Part shown: positions 44,723-54,184 of the stretch, piece after piece
Layout of the letters: every line of letters starts with the position of its first letter
How positions within the stretch are numbered: the stretch's first letter is position 1
Assembly: GCA_964558645.1 (NCBI GenBank)
Contig: CAZLEV010000002.1
Span: 176,364-240,363, forward strand
From: an uncultured archaeon
GTDB taxonomy: Archaea; Asgardarchaeota; Thorarchaeia; Thorarchaeales; Thorarchaeaceae
Length of the DNA: 64,000 nucleotides
Direction of reading: 5' to 3'
Translations under genes and position numbers: made by a program
Notes under the pieces: model-generated
What the model saw: only the letters and a program-made list of their open reading frames with translations
What the model was told of the DNA's origin: nothing
The model's database searches: none

Positions 44723-45025
44723 GGCGCTGTATCATTCGAAGGCGGAGAGCCCAAGGTAGACCACTGCCTGTATGGTGTCACAGCATAATCTCTGGCCTAC
44801 AGCACCTGTAGAATGTGGCAGTGAATGCTAGGGCCATGTACAATGCGTATTTTTTCAGACTACTCTCGAAAAAGAAAAAGAGAGAGAAGACTAATATGAT
44901 GTTTCTGCGCTCAATACAAGAGTTGCATCTGGGAGAAGAACGAATACAGCAATCCCCTGGCGGCCATGTTGGGACCGACATTGACTCACATCAAAGGCAC
45001 TCCCATTCAAGGAGAGAGAGTATCA

Positions 45026-48000
45026 ATGGGTTCGAAGAGAAACGCATTCCTGTTCCTAGCATTCGTTGGCGTCCTGACAGTACTACTGAGTGCTACGCCG
45101 ATTCTATCTTCCACCTTAGATATCCGCGAGAATGACCACTGGGAATACCCTGTAGAAAGCAACCCGGAGTCAGGATACTCTGTTTCTGATAGGGAGCAGC
45201 ATTCGCCCATCACGATCACGGGGAACAGTCAATTTGCTTCAATGGCCCAAGAGAATGGATGGCCGGGTTCAGGAGCTGCTGGCGACCCCTATGTGATTAC
45301 AGGCCTAGAGATTGATGTCGGAGGAGAGTGGGGCAGCTGTATCACTATCGAGGCTACCGATGTCCATTTCCAGATATCTGACTGCCTGCTGAAGGGAGCA
45401 AGCATCGGTGATGGATACGGCGAGGGGTGCGGCATCCGACTCGTTGACGTACAGAATGGCGAACTGAGAAATAACATCTTGCCTGGCAACCAAATCGGAA
45501 TAGCCCTGGGCACACCTGACCAGTTCAGTGCGAGTACTGCATCAAGTTTCATTGTCATAGAGGGAAATGATCTTAGTGGCTCTACCGAAGGGATTGTAGT
45601 CCGTGGATCTTCTGACAATACAATAGAGGATAACACATGTAATGGTTGTGCATTCGGGATTCAAGTCGATCACACATATGACGCCATCACTGAGGAGTTA
45701 GTTCGTTCCCAGCGGAACATCATCCGTCGGAATACAATAGGGTTCTCCAGTGATGTCGGTATCATGGTCAGGATATCCGATCAGATATCGATTACTGAGA
45801 ACGTGATACGCCGTGGCCTCGGAAAAGGAGTAAGCATTCAGGATGTGACAAACACAGCTCTCTCAGAAAACATCCTACTGAACAACAAAGTGAACGCAGA
45901 ATTTGGTATCGCCCTGAGCGCGAGCACTGTCGACTCAAACCTCTGGTCAGACTATGATGGTGTTGATGCAGACTATGATGGTATTGGTGACACTCCCTAC
46001 ACAGGACCAGGCTTCGAAGACCACCATCCCAGGATATGGCTCAGCGGCTACCGGCTCCCACTGGTGATTGATGGCGACTCCGATCTTGAAGAACGAGCAC
46101 TGGGAGAGGGTTGGGGCGGGGATGGTAGTTCAAGCAACCCGTACGTCTTTGAGAATTACCGCATTGAGGGCAGCAGTGATGCCTGTGTCAGCATCAATCG
46201 CCTGATATCAAAACATGTTGCCATTCGGAGTTGTCATCTATCGTATGGAACATCCGGGATTCATATTGAAAACGTGAACACATTCGTGACTGTTGAACAG
46301 AACACAATCTCTGAGACCGACCACGGGGTCTTGCTCCAGGCGGACTTGTCAGAACCGTACGCTGAACCATTCGCGAACATCGTTGACAATCAGTTCACGA
46401 ATAATGGTGTTGGAGTCTTTCTCTCACAGGCCGGTTGCTTGATGAGTTTCAATATTATCACGGGCAGCCGAGGTTTCGGAGTCTATGCCGAGAACTCACG
46501 AAATGTGGACATCTCAGACAATAGAATAGCCGAGTCGGAATCAGATGGCATCCACCTGTATAATGTACACGAGTTCTCTCTCAGTTTGAACAACTGCTCT
46601 GCCAATGGGGGGCATGGACTCGTTCTTGAGGACTGTACAGGGTCCGTGGACCCAGATGGAATTGGATGGCTAGAACAGAACATCCTCTCATACAACGAAT
46701 ATGGATTGTATCTTGGTGCAGGTACAGCAGATTGTGGTTTCCGGGGCAATGTTGTCAGGGGGCGTACTGCTGATGCGGTAGACCATGGAACTGGAAACAT
46801 CTTCCAGCAGAATACATGGTGGGGTTACACTGGAGTTGATTTGAACAATGACGGAATTGGTGATACCCCGTATGCATTCACAGGTAACCACGACCCGACT
46901 CCAGTATTCCCGTTGTACTGGGTGACTGCCCCCACTGATCAGCAGATGGAGACTGTCGAGCCGTTCATCTATGACCTCGACGCCGAGTCATCCTGGCCTG
47001 ATCTTACCTGGAGCATCAATGATACTCGGTTCACAGTGAGCAACGACGGAGTCATTGAAAACGCGACTCCGTTGGTTGAGCAGTTCTATCCATTAGAGGT
47101 TACGGTGGAGGGGGGAGGAGTTCTATCCGACACCTTCACTCTTGCGGTCGTACAAGATATTGAACCACCGGAAACCACTGCTGACGTATTGGGGGAGATG
47201 GGGTTGAATGGATGGTATACCTCCGAGGTCACAGTGACTCTCACAGCAGAGGACTATCCAGAAAACACCGGTCTGGGAGTGGACTACATTGAGTATCATG
47301 TTGAGGTGTCTGCTGATACTTCGGGAAGTGGGTCGAGCAGTTCGACAACGATCAAACCTGCAACTATTGCGCCGTTCTGGCAGCTCTACGATGGACCCAT
47401 TCTTGTCGGGGATGAGGGGGCTATTACAGTCTACTTCAGAGCAGTTGACCTTGCCGGGAATGTCGAGGATACCAAGTCTGTCACATTCTACATTGACAAG
47501 AGTGCTCCTGAAACCTCTGCAGCCCTGGCTGGCGACTTTACATCGACAATGTGGTACTATACAGATGTGGAAGTCACCCTCACAGCAACGGATGCATATT
47601 CTGGGGTCTCCAGTATTTTATACAGCTTTGACGGAGAGTCTTGGATCGTCTATACTGGTCCGTTCGTTTTGACAGGTGACGGAACCTATACTGTCTACTA
47701 CTACTCCATTGATATGGCAGGCAATGTTGAAGAAACGAAGTCAATCGGGGTGGGAATCGACACTGAGGCTCCAGAAACATCAGCTGGGATTGAGGGAGTC
47801 AAAGGGAACCAGCAATACTATCTCTCTGAAGTAACCGTGACGATAACGGCCTCAGACGCGACATCAGGAGTTGACAGTATCTGGTATTCGTTCGATCAAG
47901 AGACATGGAGTCTCTATGATGCGCCATTCACCGTGACTATGGAGGGGGAGACTGTGTTCTATTACTGGGCCATTGACAACGCAGGAAATGAGGAACCGAT

Positions 48001-50704
48001 CAAATCGACCACCATAGTCATTGACACATTACCGCCAGTCACAACCGTACAGCTTGAGGGCGAGAGTACAGAGAGCGGGTGGTTTACATCAGAGGTCCTA
48101 GTGACACTATCCGCAACCGACACCGAATCGGGGGTGGAGCAAACTGCATACAGTTTCGATGGCGAGGCCTGGTTGGTATATGATTCACCCTTCACATTTT
48201 CCCTGCCCGGAGTTACAACTGTCTACTACAAATCCATAGATGTTGCTGGGAATACAGAGGTCACAAAGACTGTGGAGATACGGATAGATGGAACACCGCC
48301 GGAAACCTCCATAATACTGACTGGCGCCAAGGGATTGAATGAGTGGTATATCTCGGAAGTAGAGATCTCCCTCATCGCAACAGATGCAGAGGGATCACAG
48401 GTTGTAACCGCCTACAGTTTCGATGGAGAGAGCTGGATCATCTATACCGAGCCTTTCGTGATTTCAACTGAGGGACTCCATATCATCCATTACAACTCTA
48501 CCGATGAGGCAGGGAACGTCGAAGACACTGATACGGAGACCGTCCGAATAGACTTGACACGGCCGGAAGGAAGCATACATCTTATGGGCCAAGAGGGGAC
48601 GAGCGACTGGTATCTCTCGGACGTGGAAGTCACAATCATAGCCACAGATTCACCATCAGGCATCCTTCATGTACGGTACAGTCTGAACAATGGACCGTGG
48701 ATGGACTACAACGGACCCTTCACCATAACAACAGAGGGTTCCAATTGTGTGGAATGGGAGTTGGTTGACCGTGCCGGTTGGATGTTGAATGGCTCGTTCA
48801 GCGCGAGTATAGACAAGACTCCGCCAACTACATCTCTGAGCTACGAGCAGATAAGCGGCATGGGCTCGATTGTGAATCTGACCGCAATCGACTCTGTTTC
48901 AGGGCTGGCCGCCATCAGCTATAGTACAGATGGAGTCACTTGGTCAACATACTCGGAGCCCTTCCTTCTCAGCGAAGGGGGAATCGTGCCGGTCTACTTC
49001 AATGCGACAGATGTGGCTGGTAATGTAGAAGAGCCAAAGATGGGGCTTGTTGAGGTTGATGTCCTTCCACCGGAAACAAGCATCAGCCTTGATGGCGATC
49101 TCGGTCTGGACGGTTGGTACGTTTCTGACGTCATTGTGAGCCTATCTGCAGTTGATGATCTCATGGGTGTTGACCGGATTGCATATAGCTTCGATGGTCT
49201 GGTCTGGATCGAATACTCGAGTCCCTTTGTTATCACAGATGATGGCCTCACGGTCATCTACTTCAATGCAACTGATCTTGTGGGAAACATGGAGGACACC
49301 AAGACAGAGAAGGTTCGCATTGACAAGACTGCACCAACAACGACGCTCACAGTCTCACCAGAACCCTACGGTACGGATCCCATTTTCGTTACCACTCTCT
49401 CTGAGTTCGAGCTTGAAGCATTTGATAGTCTGCCGGGTTCAGGAGTGGAACGGACGGAGTATCGGATAGCTGAGGGTAGCTGGATTATCTACGACAGGCC
49501 ATTCGTTATGGACTCGATCGGGCAGTACGAACTTCATTACCGTAGTATCGATGTGGCGGGGAATGAGGAACGTGTTCAGTCAATCACTATCATCGTCAAC
49601 GGAACGTCAATCCACTATGTAGGGGAAACATCTGGGGTCTATTCAGATCCAGCACACTTGACGGCAACCCTTGTTGACCTCGCTTCGCAGTCTCCGATAG
49701 CGGGAGCCACTGTCTTCTTTTCGATAGGGAACCAAGTCGTCTCGGCCATCACTGATAGCGACGGCAGTGCAAGCGCAGTCCTCATACTTGAGCAACCAGC
49801 AGGGGTGTACACAGCCACGGCGCTGTTTGATGAGGGAGATGTCTATCTTGCTTCTTCAGACCAAACTGACTTCGTCATACATCGCGAGAGCGCTGAAGTA
49901 TACTACACAGGCTCGACTGTAGTACCCTCAACAGCGGAATCGATCTGGCTGAGAGCAACCGTATTTGATGATGACGACGGCTACTGGGGAGATCTGACAG
50001 CTGTATACGTGACATTCTGTATCTATCTCACGACAAACGATGAACTCTCCTTGTTACAGAGTGTCGGGCCATATGCAGTTGAAATGACCAGCATTGAGGG
50101 AGTAGGGACAGCGGTGGGAGAGATACCAAACCTTACAGAAGGCGAATATCTCGTTGTTGTCATCCTCGAAAAGGAGTATAACAGCTACTACGAAGCCCCC
50201 GACTCCGAGGGAGTCAGGGTTACTGTGTTCGAGCCGACCCGCGATTTTGTCACAGGGGGAGGGTGGATCTGGGACGAGAATGAACAACGAAGCCACTTTG
50301 CGTTCGTCATCCGATATGATAAGACAGGCGTGGCAAAGGGGCAGGTTGTTTATACCTATATAGAAGGTGATTGGTTACATATCGTCAAGAGCAGAGCGAT
50401 ATTGGGCCTTGCGATTGAGGAGGAGCATGCATTCTTCGAGGCAACGTGTTTTATCGTCAAATTGAACCTGCGAACCGGCTGCTTGATCTGGACCAATGAG
50501 GAGTACAGGCTCAGAATTGATGTCTGGGATAAAGGCAAACGTGGGAGAAACGATATCTTCCAGATTCGTATCCTTGATCCCAATGGCATAGTCTATCATG
50601 AAAACGGGTTCGATCCCAGTGGAAACCTTGGTGGAGGAAACATCACAATCCATTACAGCGGGAAGAACCAGATGCATTGCTGCAAAAGAAAGAAACGCAG
50701 ATGA
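45026..50704 (+). CDS. Giant secreted surface protein: signal peptide, two NosD-like right-handed beta-helix modules, nine tandem 88-aa Ig-like repeats, C-terminal beta-sandwich domains
   Basis: The ATG at 45026 (MGSKRNAFLFLAFVGVLTVLLSA) is preceded by ggagagagag. The beta-helix repeats (N.I..N..GI.L) each end in DYDGIGDTPY or DLNNDGIGDTPY. Repeat consensus: PPETS..L.G..G..GWY.S.V.VTL.A.D..SGV..I.YSFDG..W..Y..PF.....G...VYY.S.D.AGN.E..K. Confidence 0.85.
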   Translation: MGSKRNAFLFLAFVGVLTVLLSATPILSSTLDIRENDHWEYPVESNPESGYSVSDREQHSPITITGNSQFASMAQENGWPGSGAAGDPYVITGLEIDVGGEWGSCITIEATDVHFQISDCLLKGASIGDGYGEGCGIRLVDVQNGELRNNILPGNQIGIALGTPDQFSASTASSFIVIEGNDLSGSTEGIVVRGSSDNTIEDNTCNGCAFGIQVDHTYDAITEELVRSQRNIIRRNTIGFSSDVGIMVRISDQISITENVIRRGLGKGVSIQDVTNTALSENILLNNKVNAEFGIALSASTVDSNLWSDYDGVDADYDGIGDTPYTGPGFEDHHPRIWLSGYRLPLVIDGDSDLEERALGEGWGGDGSSSNPYVFENYRIEGSSDACVSINRLISKHVAIRSCHLSYGTSGIHIENVNTFVTVEQNTISETDHGVLLQADLSEPYAEPFANIVDNQFTNNGVGVFLSQAGCLMSFNIITGSRGFGVYAENSRNVDISDNRIAESESDGIHLYNVHEFSLSLNNCSANGGHGLVLEDCTGSVDPDGIGWLEQNILSYNEYGLYLGAGTADCGFRGNVVRGRTADAVDHGTGNIFQQNTWWGYTGVDLNNDGIGDTPYAFTGNHDPTPVFPLYWVTAPTDQQMETVEPFIYDLDAESSWPDLTWSINDTRFTVSNDGVIENATPLVEQFYPLEVTVEGGGVLSDTFTLAVVQDIEPPETTADVLGEMGLNGWYTSEVTVTLTAEDYPENTGLGVDYIEYHVEVSADTSGSGSSSSTTIKPATIAPFWQLYDGPILVGDEGAITVYFRAVDLAGNVEDTKSVTFYIDKSAPETSAALAGDFTSTMWYYTDVEVTLTATDAYSGVSSILYSFDGESWIVYTGPFVLTGDGTYTVYYYSIDMAGNVEETKSIGVGIDTEAPETSAGIEGVKGNQQYYLSEVTVTITASDATSGVDSIWYSFDQETWSLYDAPFTVTMEGETVFYYWAIDNAGNEEPIKSTTIVIDTLPPVTTVQLEGESTESGWFTSEVLVTLSATDTESGVEQTAYSFDGEAWLVYDSPFTFSLPGVTTVYYKSIDVAGNTEVTKTVEIRIDGTPPETSIILTGAKGLNEWYISEVEISLIATDAEGSQVVTAYSFDGESWIIYTEPFVISTEGLHIIHYNSTDEAGNVEDTDTETVRIDLTRPEGSIHLMGQEGTSDWYLSDVEVTIIATDSPSGILHVRYSLNNGPWMDYNGPFTITTEGSNCVEWELVDRAGWMLNGSFSASIDKTPPTTSLSYEQISGMGSIVNLTAIDSVSGLAAISYSTDGVTWSTYSEPFLLSEGGIVPVYFNATDVAGNVEEPKMGLVEVDVLPPETSISLDGDLGLDGWYVSDVIVSLSAVDDLMGVDRIAYSFDGLVWIEYSSPFVITDDGLTVIYFNATDLVGNMEDTKTEKVRIDKTAPTTTLTVSPEPYGTDPIFVTTLSEFELEAFDSLPGSGVERTEYRIAEGSWIIYDRPFVMDSIGQYELHYRSIDVAGNEERVQSITIIVNGTSIHYVGETSGVYSDPAHLTATLVDLASQSPIAGATVFFSIGNQVVSAITDSDGSASAVLILEQPAGVYTATALFDEGDVYLASSDQTDFVIHRESAEVYYTGSTVVPSTAESIWLRATVFDDDDGYWGDLTAVYVTFCIYLTTNDELSLLQSVGPYAVEMTSIEGVGTAVGEIPNLTEGEYLVVVILEKEYNSYYEAPDSEGVRVTVFEPTRDFVTGGGWIWDENEQRSHFAFVIRYDKTGVAKGQVVYTYIEGDWLHIVKSRAILGLAIEEEHAFFEATCFIVKLNLRTGCLIWTNEEYRLRIDVWDKGKRGRNDIFQIRILDPNGIVYHENGFDPSGNLGGGNITIHYSGKNQMHCCKRKKRR
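47150..49600 (+). repeat. Nine in-frame tandem coding repeats, period 264 bp
   Basis: The conserved Pro codon of the (P/A)PET motif lies at 47168, 47507, 47771, 48035, 48299, 48563, 48824, 49070 and 49334. The spacings are 339, 264, 264, 264, 264, 261, 246 and 264 bp. Confidence 0.9.
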
Positions 50705-50778: not shown

Positions 50779-51198
50779 CTATTCACCAATGACCTTAATC
50801 AAGACCCGCTTTGGTCTCCGTCCATCAAACTCTCCGTAGAAGATTGCCTCCCAAGGTCCGAGATCGAGCCGGCCATTGGTTATAGCAACAACCACTTCAC
50901 GACCCATGACCTGCCGTTTGAGATGGGCATCACCATTATCCTCTCCTGTACGGTTGTGTCGATACTGGCTGATGGGCTCATGGGGAGCGATTTCCTCAAG
51001 CCAGCGCTTATAGTCCTCATGTAGACCACTCTCGTTATCGTTGATGAAGACACTGGACGTTATGTGCATCGAATTCACAAGACAGAGTCCTTCTTGAACC
51101 TCACTCTCGGCAACAGCCTTCTGGACCTTCGGAGTTATGTGGACAAGATCCATGCGCTTTGGAACATTGAATGTTAGGTACTTTGTATGGCTTTTCAT
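50779..51198 (-). CDS. yjbQ: YjbQ/UPF0047 family protein (secondary thiamine-phosphate synthase-like)
   Basis: Full-length family pattern: ...[29 protein letters not shown]...AP....[14 protein letters not shown]....G. Confidence 0.85.
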
Positions 51199-51356: not shown

Positions 51357-52463
51357 ATGAGGAGAAGTCCCCGCAGGCAATTCAAAGTCTGCCTGATAGG
51401 CGACGGTTATGTGGGCAAGACGTCAATCAGGCAGGAGTATCTGGGGAAGGGGTTTAAGGCAAGCTACATCCCCACCCTCGGAGTCGATTTCGCTCAGAAG
51501 TCGTTGATGTACGATGACAAAGAAACGCAACTTGTGATATGGGATATCGCAGGGCAGCCCCTCTTCAAGAGCCTCCGCCAGAAGTACTATCAGGGCTGCA
51601 GCGGCATAATCCTCGTTTATTCTGTTGTGGACAGGAGCTCCTTTGACAACGCCTCAAAGTGGCTTGTTGAGGCCTACGGCTTCATGGGAGAGCTCCCACC
51701 CATAATAGTAGCGGCAAACAAGATAGATCTGCGATCAAACCGGCCAGAAGACGAGATAGTCACTTATGAAGAGGGGAAAGTCTTCGCGGAGAAGTTCAGT
51801 CAGAAACTGAATGCACCGGCCATTTTCATAGAAACGTCTGCACTGACAGGGGAGAACATCGAAGAGGCGTTTCAAGAACTGACAGAAATGATGGTTGAGA
51901 GAGTCGAGAGGCGCCTCCAAGGACTCAGAGAAGAATCGGCATCGACGATGCCAGAACAGGCCGCAGATACTCAAACCAGAGCAGTTGAATCGACAGAGAC
52001 CTCTGCGTCAGGAGATTCAATGGGTTCGACCACTGCAAATACCGCACCCTCTGAGGCGGATTTTGACCCCGTGACCTCACTCATGAGCGACTCACCTCAT
52101 CTACAGGAAGAGCAGATTGGAGAACATATGAGCAGACTGCTCCAGTTGCGTAGTGAACTGAAGAGTGCAGAGGAAGAAATGGCACACCTCACCTCTCAGT
52201 ATGAAACTAGGCTCTTGGAACTCAGAAACACCGTCCATGTCAAGAAGCTGATGTATGAGCACCTCCAGACACAGATCAAGGAAACACGACAGGAGTGGTC
52301 TGATGCCTATGAGGAGTATGTGAAAATAGAGGAACACAAGAACAGAGAGATAACACGACGGGGTAAGCAGATCGAGAGCATCCGAAAAGAAATAGAGCGT
52401 ATAGGAAGGACAATAAGAACGAGGGTCGGCGACCTCGATCTGAGAAAGGTTACTGGGTCATAG
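51357..52463 (+). CDS. Ras/Rab-like small GTPase with a ~190-aa C-terminal linker plus coiled-coil extension
   Basis: G1 GDGYVGKTS, switch I YIPTLGVDF, G3 WDIAGQ, G4 NKID, G5 ETSAL. These are followed by an S/T/A/E-rich linker and heptad-rich sequence (LLQLRSELKSAEEEMAHLTSQYETRLLELRN...). The ATG at 51357 is preceded by aaggtg. Confidence 0.9.
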   Translation: MRRSPRRQFKVCLIGDGYVGKTSIRQEYLGKGFKASYIPTLGVDFAQKSLMYDDKETQLVIWDIAGQPLFKSLRQKYYQGCSGIILVYSVVDRSSFDNASKWLVEAYGFMGELPPIIVAANKIDLRSNRPEDEIVTYEEGKVFAEKFSQKLNAPAIFIETSALTGENIEEAFQELTEMMVERVERRLQGLREESASTMPEQAADTQTRAVESTETSASGDSMGSTTANTAPSEADFDPVTSLMSDSPHLQEEQIGEHMSRLLQLRSELKSAEEEMAHLTSQYETRLLELRNTVHVKKLMYEHLQTQIKETRQEWSDAYEEYVKIEEHKNREITRRGKQIESIRKEIERIGRTIRTRVGDLDLRKVTGS

Positions 52464-52693: not shown

Positions 52694-53449
52694 TCAAGTC
52701 CTGGCAACCAAGTAACGCAGCCACATATGCCCACTAAGATCCGTATGCGCCGATATAAGATTGAGCCGCGTTGGTAGCTCTCCTTCTTGGAGATCTGGCG
52801 AGTCGAACAGGCTCGGCGTATCAGTCCCTCCCACAAGACCCGGGACGATTTCGATGTTGACTTCATCAACCAGTCCAGCGCGAAGAAGTGCTCCATTGAG
52901 TTTCCCGCCTGGAGTCGCCAGTATGCATTCAACACCCAATAGCGAATGAAGCTTGTTGAACGTGGCATGCAGGTCAACATGACCATCCCCAGCAAGGAGG
53001 TAAGGGATTCCCTCTCGCTGGAGATAACCGAGGTACTCTCTGGGCGTATGATTACCAACCAGAATCAGGATATGCCATCCGGGCAGGTCATCGAAGGTCT
53101 TCGCCCATCCTCTCATTCTACCTCGGCCATCAACCGCCACACACCAGCCCCTCCGCTCTGGAGAATCAATGACTGAAGAGGGAAGAAAGTCCTGGTACAG
53201 GTCAGAATCTCCGATATCAGTCGAGGGCAGGGGTTCCGGTCTCCGATTCTCCGGAACAAAAGAACCACTTCCCTCCATTATTACGGTCGGCCTGTGGAGA
53301 GATATCAAATACTCTCTAACATTGATCTCGGGAGTTGATGTGATGGTTTCGAATCTATCGTCGCCATCGAACATAGTCTTATTCGGTGCTATTGCTACTC
53401 GTCCGTCTGCAGATGCAACCGTGTACGTTACTACTCGGGGTCGATCCAT
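52694..53449 (-). CDS. RibD C-terminal / dihydrofolate-reductase-like reductase domain protein
   Basis: VTYTVASADGRVA... and GGTDTPSLFD, the layout of pyrimidine-reductase-fold proteins. Confidence 0.55.
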   Translation of the reverse strand: MDRPRVVTYTVASADGRVAIAPNKTMFDGDDRFETITSTPEINVREYLISLHRPTVIMEGSGSFVPENRRPEPLPSTDIGDSDLYQDFLPSSVIDSPERRGWCVAVDGRGRMRGWAKTFDDLPGWHILILVGNHTPREYLGYLQREGIPYLLAGDGHVDLHATFNKLHSLLGVECILATPGGKLNGALLRAGLVDEVNIEIVPGLVGGTDTPSLFDSPDLQEGELPTRLNLISAHTDLSGHMWLRYLVART

Positions 53450-53866: not shown

Positions 53867-54184
53867 ATGTCCGAACAGGAACCAGAATCAACGAAAGTCA
53901 TTGCCGAACTTGTCATTGCGCCCTTTGGTGTAGGAACAAGTCTGAGCAAGTATGTTCGAGAGTCTGTCAGAGTCATCGATGAATTTCCTGGCATAAGAGT
54001 CCAACACACTCCCATGAGCTCAATCATCGAAGCAGACGATGTTGACAAGGTTCTAGCCGTGACCAAGGCGGCTCACGAGAGGATGTTCGAGGCGGGAGCC
54101 GAGAGAGTTTCCACCTTGCTTCGTATTGACGACAGAAGAGACAAGCCTCGTAGAATGGAGGATAAGGTGGAGTCTATATCGTAA
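53867..54184 (+). CDS. MTH1187/YkoF-family thiamine-binding protein (DUF77)
   Basis: VIAELVIAPFGVGTSLSKYV...HTPMSSIIEAD.VDKVL.V.K.AHE......AERV.T.LRIDDRRDK. Confidence 0.85.
   Translation: MSEQEPESTKVIAELVIAPFGVGTSLSKYVRESVRVIDEFPGIRVQHTPMSSIIEADDVDKVLAVTKAAHERMFEAGAERVSTLLRIDDRRDKPRRMEDKVESIS

Follow-up and report, generated by a model that had tools for sequence, protein, structure and literature searches.

A Rab-like GTPase with a long C-terminal extension

The window analyzed here, a stretch of 64,000 nucleotides on contig C2 of a Thorarchaeota (Asgard) metagenome-assembled genome, carries at positions 51357 to 52463 of the forward strand a gene encoding a Rab-like GTPase followed by a linker and a helical tail. 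The open reading frame (ORF) spans 51354/51357 to 52463 and is continuous; translation from the ATG at 51357, which is also the start used in homologues, gives 368 amino acids (aa) plus the stop codon. The source genome comprises 3.63 Mb in 37 contigs and is 92.8% complete, the nearest homologues of the GTPase are named Candidatus Thorarchaeota archaeon at NCBI, and the DNA carrying the GTPase stretch was found in marine sediment metagenomes. According to our analysis, the tail is, as judged from its sequence conservation, a specific lineage-restricted conserved domain and not a generic coiled coil. A word-indexed search returned 547 relatives, and the best 120 clusters among them match the protein over its whole length (335 to 456 aa, nearly all with 98 to 99% query coverage, 50 to 77% identity). 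The idea that the long ORF is an artefact, with a coiled-coil gene of other origin attached to the GTPase through misassembly or a fused gene call, was considered because the genome was assembled from a metagenome and is in 37 contigs. Nothing in its favour emerged, it has practically no chance of being correct, and it was rejected: more than 120 independent protein clusters, which come from many samples, have the same architecture, as do about 57 genomes, and the reading frame here is unbroken.

The G domain occupies residues 8 to 185 (51378 to 51911), as supported by the matches to Pfam Ras, PDB 7ezb, and the Foldseek Rabs. The five Rab/Ras-like G motifs named in the original prediction are all intact, and they are invariant or nearly so across 40 aligned homologues. 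They consist of the G1 or P-loop GDGYVGKTS (residues 15 to 23; 51399 to 51425), which bears a family-specific aromatic residue (Y/F) at the Ras-G13 position; the G2 switch I threonine T40 (51474 to 51476) within YIPTLGVDF, of which LGVDF is RabF1-like; G3 DIAGQ (residues 63 to 67; 51543 to 51557), invariant in the 40 sequences and containing the catalytic Gln67; G4 NKID (residues 121 to 124; 51717 to 51728); and G5 ETSAL (residues 159 to 163; 51831 to 51845). The Pfam Ras profile (PF00071) matches residues 10 to 179 at 2.1e-42 with 144.9 bits against a cut-off of 21.6, covering profile positions 1 to 160 of 162, while the other Pfam matches of the G domain are weaker, namely, Roc, Arf (55.6 bits), and MMR_HSR1, whose 20.6 bits lie under its cut-off. 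Gtr1_RagA gave no Pfam match in the GTPase.

Comparison with solved structures points the same way. The best PDB sequence match of the G domain is the Thorarchaeota Rab 7ezb (1.3e-35, residues 8 to 182), followed by Rab1A, Rab14, Rab2, Rab4, Rab11, Ypt1, and Sec4, with the eukaryotic Rabs at 1e-25 to 1e-30. The best 60 sequence matches listed carry Rab/Ypt/Sec4 or generic GTP-binding names, and none of them is named Ras, Rho, Ran, Arf, Rag, MglA, or Era. In the AlphaFold2 model built with the 40-sequence alignment, the G domain has a predicted local distance difference test (pLDDT) score mostly of 70 to 91, the switch I loop excepted, and a Foldseek search of the AlphaFold2 model against the PDB returned Rabs for all of the best 50 matches listed, with TM of about 0.8 to the target. 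The assignment to Rab/Ras-like GTPases made from the sequence is therefore sustained by the top sequence and fold matches, and the prokaryotic MglA and Era families, with which the G domain might have clustered instead, appear neither among the 60 best sequence matches nor among the 50 best fold matches listed. The RabF1 to RabF5 consensus of Pereira-Leal and Seabra (2000) reportedly reads IGVDF, KLQIW, RFrsiT, YYRGA, and LVYDIT, respectively; compared with it by eye, the protein agrees at 4 of 5 positions in LGVDF, 3 of 5 in QLVIW, 2 of 6 in LFKSLR, 3 of 5 in YYQGC, and 3 of 6 in LVYSVV. The protein is probably a functional Rab-like GTP switch, for which GTP binding and hydrolysis are predicted from the motifs.

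The genome contains 28 matches to the Ras family profile. In a tree of its own Ras-family G domains together with 13 orthologues, the fused proteins form a clade with support of 99/97, within which a tail-less paralogue, C7:95128-95640 (+), nests and to which another, C1:311807-312316 (+), is sister. Both paralogues are short, single-domain Rab-like proteins and are the nearest relatives of the fused G domain in this genome. The C7 paralogue retains the P-loop aromatic residue (GDPYVGKTS), which, together with its position inside the fused clade, suggests that it lost its tail following duplication. In the GTPase itself this residue is Tyr18 (51408 to 51410), replaced by Phe in some homologues; the solved Thorarchaeota Rab has Ala at the same Ras-Gly13 position (GDGAVGKT). 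Eukaryotic Rabs carry Gly there. The aromatic residue could affect nucleotide exchange or the access of a GTPase-activating protein (GAP).

The helical tail and its predicted dimer

Past the G domain the protein continues for about 188 aa, close to the 190 aa that had been estimated. The extension begins with a disordered linker at residues 197 to 234 (51945 to 52058), in which 82% of the residues are S/T/A/E/P/Q/G, as its earlier description as S/T/A/E-rich had it, and the net charge is -5; AlphaFold2 assigns a pLDDT under 50 to residues 197 to 236. Between homologues the linker differs widely in both sequence and length: in 114 of them, G5 and the invariant EW motif downstream are 122 to 239 aa apart, compared with just 40 to 67 aa from the EW motif to the C-terminus. 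The GTPase has no Cys after residue 81, hence none in the linker or tail, and the C-terminal Cys motif for geranylgeranylation is absent from it. The original prediction was thus right that the protein lacks a lipidation motif, and the trait extends to the family, where 0 of 120 homologues have a Cys within the last 8 residues.

The linker leads into a conserved pre-helix motif, [DE]-x-D-P-V-T-x-L-x-x-D-S-x-[YH]-L-x-E-[DE]-x-I-G, recognized in the alignments at residues 235 to 255 (52059 to 52121), and then into a single long helix at residues 247 to 365 (52095 to 52451), which forms the tail domain and is predicted to build an antiparallel coiled coil with a second copy of itself, its centre lying near residue 305. 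AlphaFold2 models the helix as uninterrupted, and its pLDDT exceeds 90 whether the input is the alignment or the single sequence. The hydrophobic power spectrum of the tail peaks at 3.5 residues (z = 3.1; 81 of 5000 shuffles reach it), one heptad stutter is located near residues 325 to 331 according to our own reading of the alignment columns, and the a/d pattern is clearer at the family level than in the single sequence. The tail is thus confidently predicted as helical rather than disordered, and it has heptad periodicity. The earlier description of it as strongly heptad-patterned holds as to the periodicity; the word "strongly" somewhat overstated it, in view of the z value and of the stutter.

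These properties bear on whether the tail could be a membrane-binding or curvature-sensing amphipathic helix that directly takes the place of prenylation. Such a role would supply the membrane anchor on which eukaryotic Rabs depend and which this GTPase lacks, and the localisation of Asgard Rab-like proteins was left open by Tran et al. 2024 (PMC10933270). However, the tail is acidic (26 acidic residues, net charge -3) and lacks a basic or aromatic face, its hydrophobic residues are confined to a narrow a/d stripe typical of helix-helix packing, and the GTPase shows no transmembrane or lipidation signal, so that we regard a membrane helix as very unlikely.

In the 40-homologue alignment, the last ~134 residues and the G domain are similarly well conserved. 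The invariant residues of the helix are M258, L261, R265, L268, N291, H302, L303, T310, R311, E313, W314, Y318, and L360; the polar and aromatic ones among them indicate a conservation beyond what a generic coiled coil needs. An exhaustive phmmer search with residues 235 to 368 against 1.84 billion protein representatives found just 38 proteins at E up to 0.001. Known families gave little: in Pfam the tail has only weak matches of the coiled-coil type (MbeD_MobD, LXG, and Golgin_A5), in NCBIfam nothing above cut-off, and in the ESM Atlas no usable match, and a tail profile searched against the PDB retrieved generic coiled coils only, at E of 0.001 or worse (TRAF7, the ClpC M-domain, IFT57, and the ATPase inhibitor IF1).

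The MbeD/MobD match was considered separately, as one NCBI homologue of the GTPase is so annotated and this family (PF04899; NF033829) likewise consists of a short, charged helical segment. The Pfam MbeD_MobD match scores 23.0 against a cut-off of 21.6 and involves residues 300 to 354, under half of the domain. In the orthologue of genome G320 the score falls to 20.9, under the Pfam cut-off, and the NCBIfam model NF033829 reaches 17.9 against a cut-off of 60. We therefore rejected an MbeD/MobD identity, took the match as a compositional one to a coiled coil, and consider the name given to the NCBI homologue a probable misannotation.

Residues 235 to 368 were modelled in two copies, along with three controls. 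The homodimer scored 0.57 and the best of the three controls 0.00. Of proteins with a solved structure, 20 of 30 homodimers attained the mark of 0.57, compared with 1 of 23 monomers. The homodimer runs agreed in at least 94% of their contacts, with a partner pLDDT of at least 85. Modelled contacts are antiparallel (342-268, 346-264, 321-289, and 303-303), with a two-fold axis near residue 305, and the modelled interface keeps a continuous 3-4 spacing from residue 247 to residue 363. The model is support for self-association rather than proof of it; on this basis the tail most likely forms a two-stranded homodimeric coiled coil, which is probably antiparallel. Its most conserved stretch, residues 286 to 321, would then face itself across the pair, and the small residues A271 and A317 would face the large I339 and V293, respectively. 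By our own arithmetic, a 117-residue helix at 1.5 Å per residue makes a rod about 17 nm long. The original prediction had proposed membrane or partner targeting by oligomerisation; partner targeting or oligomerisation has support, whereas targeting to a membrane has no direct support.

A tail domain family with three architectures

A six-frame search for the tail domain in 400 genomes of the phylum (Asgard) detected it in 79 of the 85 genomes of the window's own Genome Taxonomy Database (GTDB) family but not in the one genome that represents the sister family within the order. Outside its own family, the search gave three borderline matches only, at E values from 3e-4 to 7e-4. Two to five domain matches are present in many genomes, and they fall into three architectures. 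Class A, the Rab-like fusion, was counted as tail matches at E below 1e-25 and occurs in about 57 of 86 genomes and 11 of 16 genera; in the five other genera class A was not found with this query and other classes alone were seen. Class B proteins, about 380 to 410 aa long and without a Pfam match, carry a zinc ribbon (CxxCG...CxRCG) at the N-terminus, followed by a conserved helical piece, a linker rich in proline, and the tail. In class C, of about 140 to 180 aa, the tail domain stands alone. Across the three classes the domain aligns without gaps from D245 to L360, W314 being invariant and L268, Y300, and R356 nearly so, and the identity between classes within the domain is 22 to 34%. A gapless alignment over three architectures is what would be expected if the length of the rod matters.

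Full-text literature searches found no description of the Rab-tail fusion or of the tail domain. The tail defines a small and hitherto undescribed family of domains. Of its three architectures, one keeps synteny with the Asgard actin gene: the class B gene lies 0.5 to 6 kb from an actin gene (actin Pfam, 1.2e-132), in convergent orientation, in 11 of the 14 genomes fetched, which represent several genera.

This linkage raises the prospect that the tail is a hetero-oligomerisation module, in which mixed rods or bundles with class B and class C proteins would build an actin-linked scaffold with the GTPase as a regulated subunit. The co-occurrence of the three architectures in many genomes of the family, typically with three matches each, agrees with such a module, as does the identical domain length in all of the classes, along with the closeness of class B to actin. 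However, closeness to the actin gene is synteny and shows no interaction, and the classes are merely 22 to 34% identical within the domain. Moreover, the genome studied here keeps class A intact with a class B-like gene that is frameshifted, no class C gene detected at 92.8% completeness, and no tail-domain gene near its actin gene, which is on contig C4, so that class A seems independent of its paralogues. The class B-like gene, C14:4449-5361 (= L065:2949-3861, -), carries a frameshift within the helical domain that splits it into overlapping frames of 243 and 91 aa, and Tyr takes the place of the otherwise invariant Trp; this copy is either a pseudogene or an assembly error. Taken together, we judge a hetero-oligomeric scaffold to be decidedly improbable.

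Further details were noted for the two GTPase-less classes. An example of class B is L060:6751-7950 (+) in genome G320, encoding about 400 aa, to which the genes in L066-L079 correspond; its conserved helical piece reads KSEMEKAREAFAKAE..GIVE.RMLRASEV. Class C is exemplified by L061:7693-8175 (-) in the same genome and by P0152, P0155, and P0158, of about 160 aa. Class C proteins end in a conserved acidic/basic peptide, ...EEE[KR][KR]RELGI(D), possibly for docking. In the genome of the window, the locus C12:85845-89062 (= L064:2845-6062, -) encodes a 347-aa protein that combines the zinc ribbon and helical N-terminal module of class B with a different C-terminus, containing a second CPNCG-type motif. 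Its gene lies upstream of a tandem pair of Rab-like GTPase genes, at a distance of about 1 kb and with one opposite-strand ORF between, and a 524-aa coiled-coil ORF is found about 2.3 kb away on the opposite strand.

Possible role of the fusion and its genomic setting

On balance, and with no great margin of confidence, we favour a reading in which the protein is a Rab-like GTP switch that is dimerised by a helical rod of about 17 nm and placed by protein contacts rather than by prenylation. In this mechanism, the Rab-like G domain would act as a GTP switch in the Thorarchaeota cell, and the disordered linker of about 40 aa would tether one G domain at each end of the antiparallel rod, making the dimer a putative bivalent, nucleotide-regulated adaptor. 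Its placement in the cell would be achieved through protein contacts of the rod and the pre-helix motif, with lipid insertion playing no part. The class A-specific conserved residues at the centre of the rod (N291, H294, H302, R311, and Y318) would offer the likely binding surface; N291, H294, and H302 are likely solvent exposed in the assigned heptad register, which is why we read them in this way. A more far-reaching version, in which the module is specific to this Thorarchaeota family and the Rab-fused form works as a nucleotide-gated tether or cross-linker in a single polypeptide, with two heads about 17 nm apart linking membrane or cytoskeletal targets as a prokaryotic functional analogue of the eukaryotic Rab with its coiled-coil tether, one evolved independently of prenylation, is speculative and probably wrong.

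Several points weigh against the dimeric switch. The heptad periodicity is merely moderate in the single sequence (z = 3.1), and both the dimer and its orientation come from one modelling method, in which long amphipathic helices are readily laid side by side. A mirror-correlation of the hydrophobic profile of the family, computed over all possible centres, peaks at residue sums of 660, 621, 582, 561, and 607, and at none corresponding to the modelled 610. The unusual aromatic residue at the Ras-G13 position could alter nucleotide handling, GTPase activity itself being predicted from sequence. Finally, the gene neighbourhood points to no partner, membrane link, or regulator, and its linkage to yjbQ, described below, resembles plain synteny.

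The same conserved residues could be explained differently, if the tail were a built-in regulator or effector mimic whose helix at residues 286 to 321 binds the switch regions of its own or its sister G domain, with a nucleotide-controlled transition between open and closed states. Coiled-coil partners that bind Rab switch regions are known from the guanine nucleotide exchange factor (GEF) domains of Sec2/Rabin8, from Rab11-FIP, and from LidA-type effectors, and many of the top fold matches of the model are Rabs solved with coiled-coil partners. H294, H302, T310, R311, and Y318 reach a conservation of at least 97% among the GTPase fusions and differ in the GTPase-less classes, and H294 and H302 point outward in the assigned register. 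In the pre-helix motif, D[SP]xYLxDxxI is common to all three classes, while DPVTxL is specific to the fused class and shows isolated beta-bridge marks in the AlphaFold2 model. On the other hand, the AlphaFold2 monomer has a predicted TM score (pTM) of 0.49 and the linker a pLDDT under 50, which indicates no confident docking of the tail on the G domain, and the core residues W314, Y300, R356, and L268 are common to proteins without a G domain. Built-in regulation therefore appears unlikely to us, if the least so of the alternative roles of the tail.

Compared with known systems, the dimeric switch has partial counterparts. The solved Thor-Rab (SMTZ1-45; PDB 7ezb, 7ezd, and 7eze) comes from the same phylum and has the same Rab-like G-domain fold, and both proteins are without a C-terminal Cys; however, Thor-Rab is a single truncated domain (PMC10933270), whereas the GTPase described here adds a linker and a conserved helical domain of 120 aa, and its G domain belongs to a separate clade in the in-genome tree (99/97). 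With eukaryotic Rabs (Rab1, Rab8, Rab11, Rab14, Ypt1, and Sec4) it shares G1 to G5, the catalytic Gln, the RabF1-like LGVDF, and the RabF4-like YYQGC, as judged by the consensus quoted above, with RabF2, F3, and F5 partly matched. It differs from them in lacking a CC/CXC/CAAX motif and a short hypervariable tail, in its predicted dimerisation via the rod, and in the absence of a TBC GAP match from its own genome.

Fusion of a G domain to a coiled coil is also seen in Arl13b, where the coiled coil is C-terminal, and in the large Rabs Rab44/45/CRACR2A, where it is N-terminal; the coiled coils serve self-association or partner binding, and the proteins are lipid modified by palmitoylation or prenylation. 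Their likeness to the protein described here is one of layout, with no known sequence kinship and with another subfamily or domain order. The Sec2/Rabin8 GEF domain, the Rab11-FIP Rab-binding domain (RBD), and LidA form long dimeric helical rods and bind Rabs at their switch regions, and several of them are the partners present in the top fold matches. In contrast to the tail, they are separate polypeptides, and the tail profile detected no sequence similarity to them in the PDB. These rods are mostly parallel dimers.

Asgard archaea are known for Rab-like GTPases that lack a prenylation motif, and the architectures that Tran et al. catalogued for a Lokiarchaeon are fusions with roadblock or longin domains (PMC10933270). 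What is new here, beyond the already known lack of prenylation, is the fusion to a lineage-specific helical domain. How Asgard Rab-like proteins, none of which has a prenylation motif, are targeted was stated to be unknown by Tran et al. 2024 (PMC10933270), and the Rab-tail family presents a concrete, conserved, and testable candidate for an alternative to lipid anchoring, in which the switch is fused to a rod dedicated to dimerisation or docking. Being restricted to a single family of Thorarchaeia, the tail domain is best seen as a lineage-specific invention and not as the ancestor of a eukaryotic feature; the family illustrates the diversification of Asgard GTPases and has no bearing on eukaryotic ancestry.

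As for candidate regulators, profile searches found 12 Roadblock/LC7 matches, 2 TRAPP matches, and 0 RabGAP-TBC matches in the genome. None of the Roadblock/LC7 or TRAPP matches is in the window, and TBC is likewise absent from it, so that the original prediction of a neighbourhood without such regulators stands for Roadblock and TBC. Its naming of the flanking genes also agrees with the Pfam matches. On one side lies yjbQ/UPF0047 (50779 to 51198, -), divergent from the GTPase gene, and on the other a RibD_C-like gene (52694 to 53449, -), convergent with it. In 18 of 32 related loci, yjbQ and the class A gene are no more than about 1.5 kb apart, with yjbQ either upstream and divergent, as in the window, or downstream and convergent, and co-directional in none. 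Given these differing arrangements, we rejected yjbQ as a functional or operon partner and regard the linkage as synteny that has been retained. For the RibD_C-like gene, adjacency to class A was seen in only 2 of the 32 loci, so that it is no conserved partner.

The region of the GTPase gene is flanked not only by yjbQ but also by a gene for a YkoF-type thiamine-binding protein (PF01910) at 53867 to 54184 (+). Members of the YjbQ family reportedly have a thiamine-phosphate synthase side activity, and the two genes may constitute a small thiamine-related neighbourhood unrelated to the GTPase. Just upstream, an ORF of 1912 aa (44966 to 50704, +) encodes beta-helix-like repeats together with about nine Ig-like repeats, each some 88 aa long, and ends in a Cys-Cys-polybasic sequence, HCCKRKKRR; the sole CC-type C-terminus of the neighbourhood thus sits on this surface-type protein and not on the GTPase.

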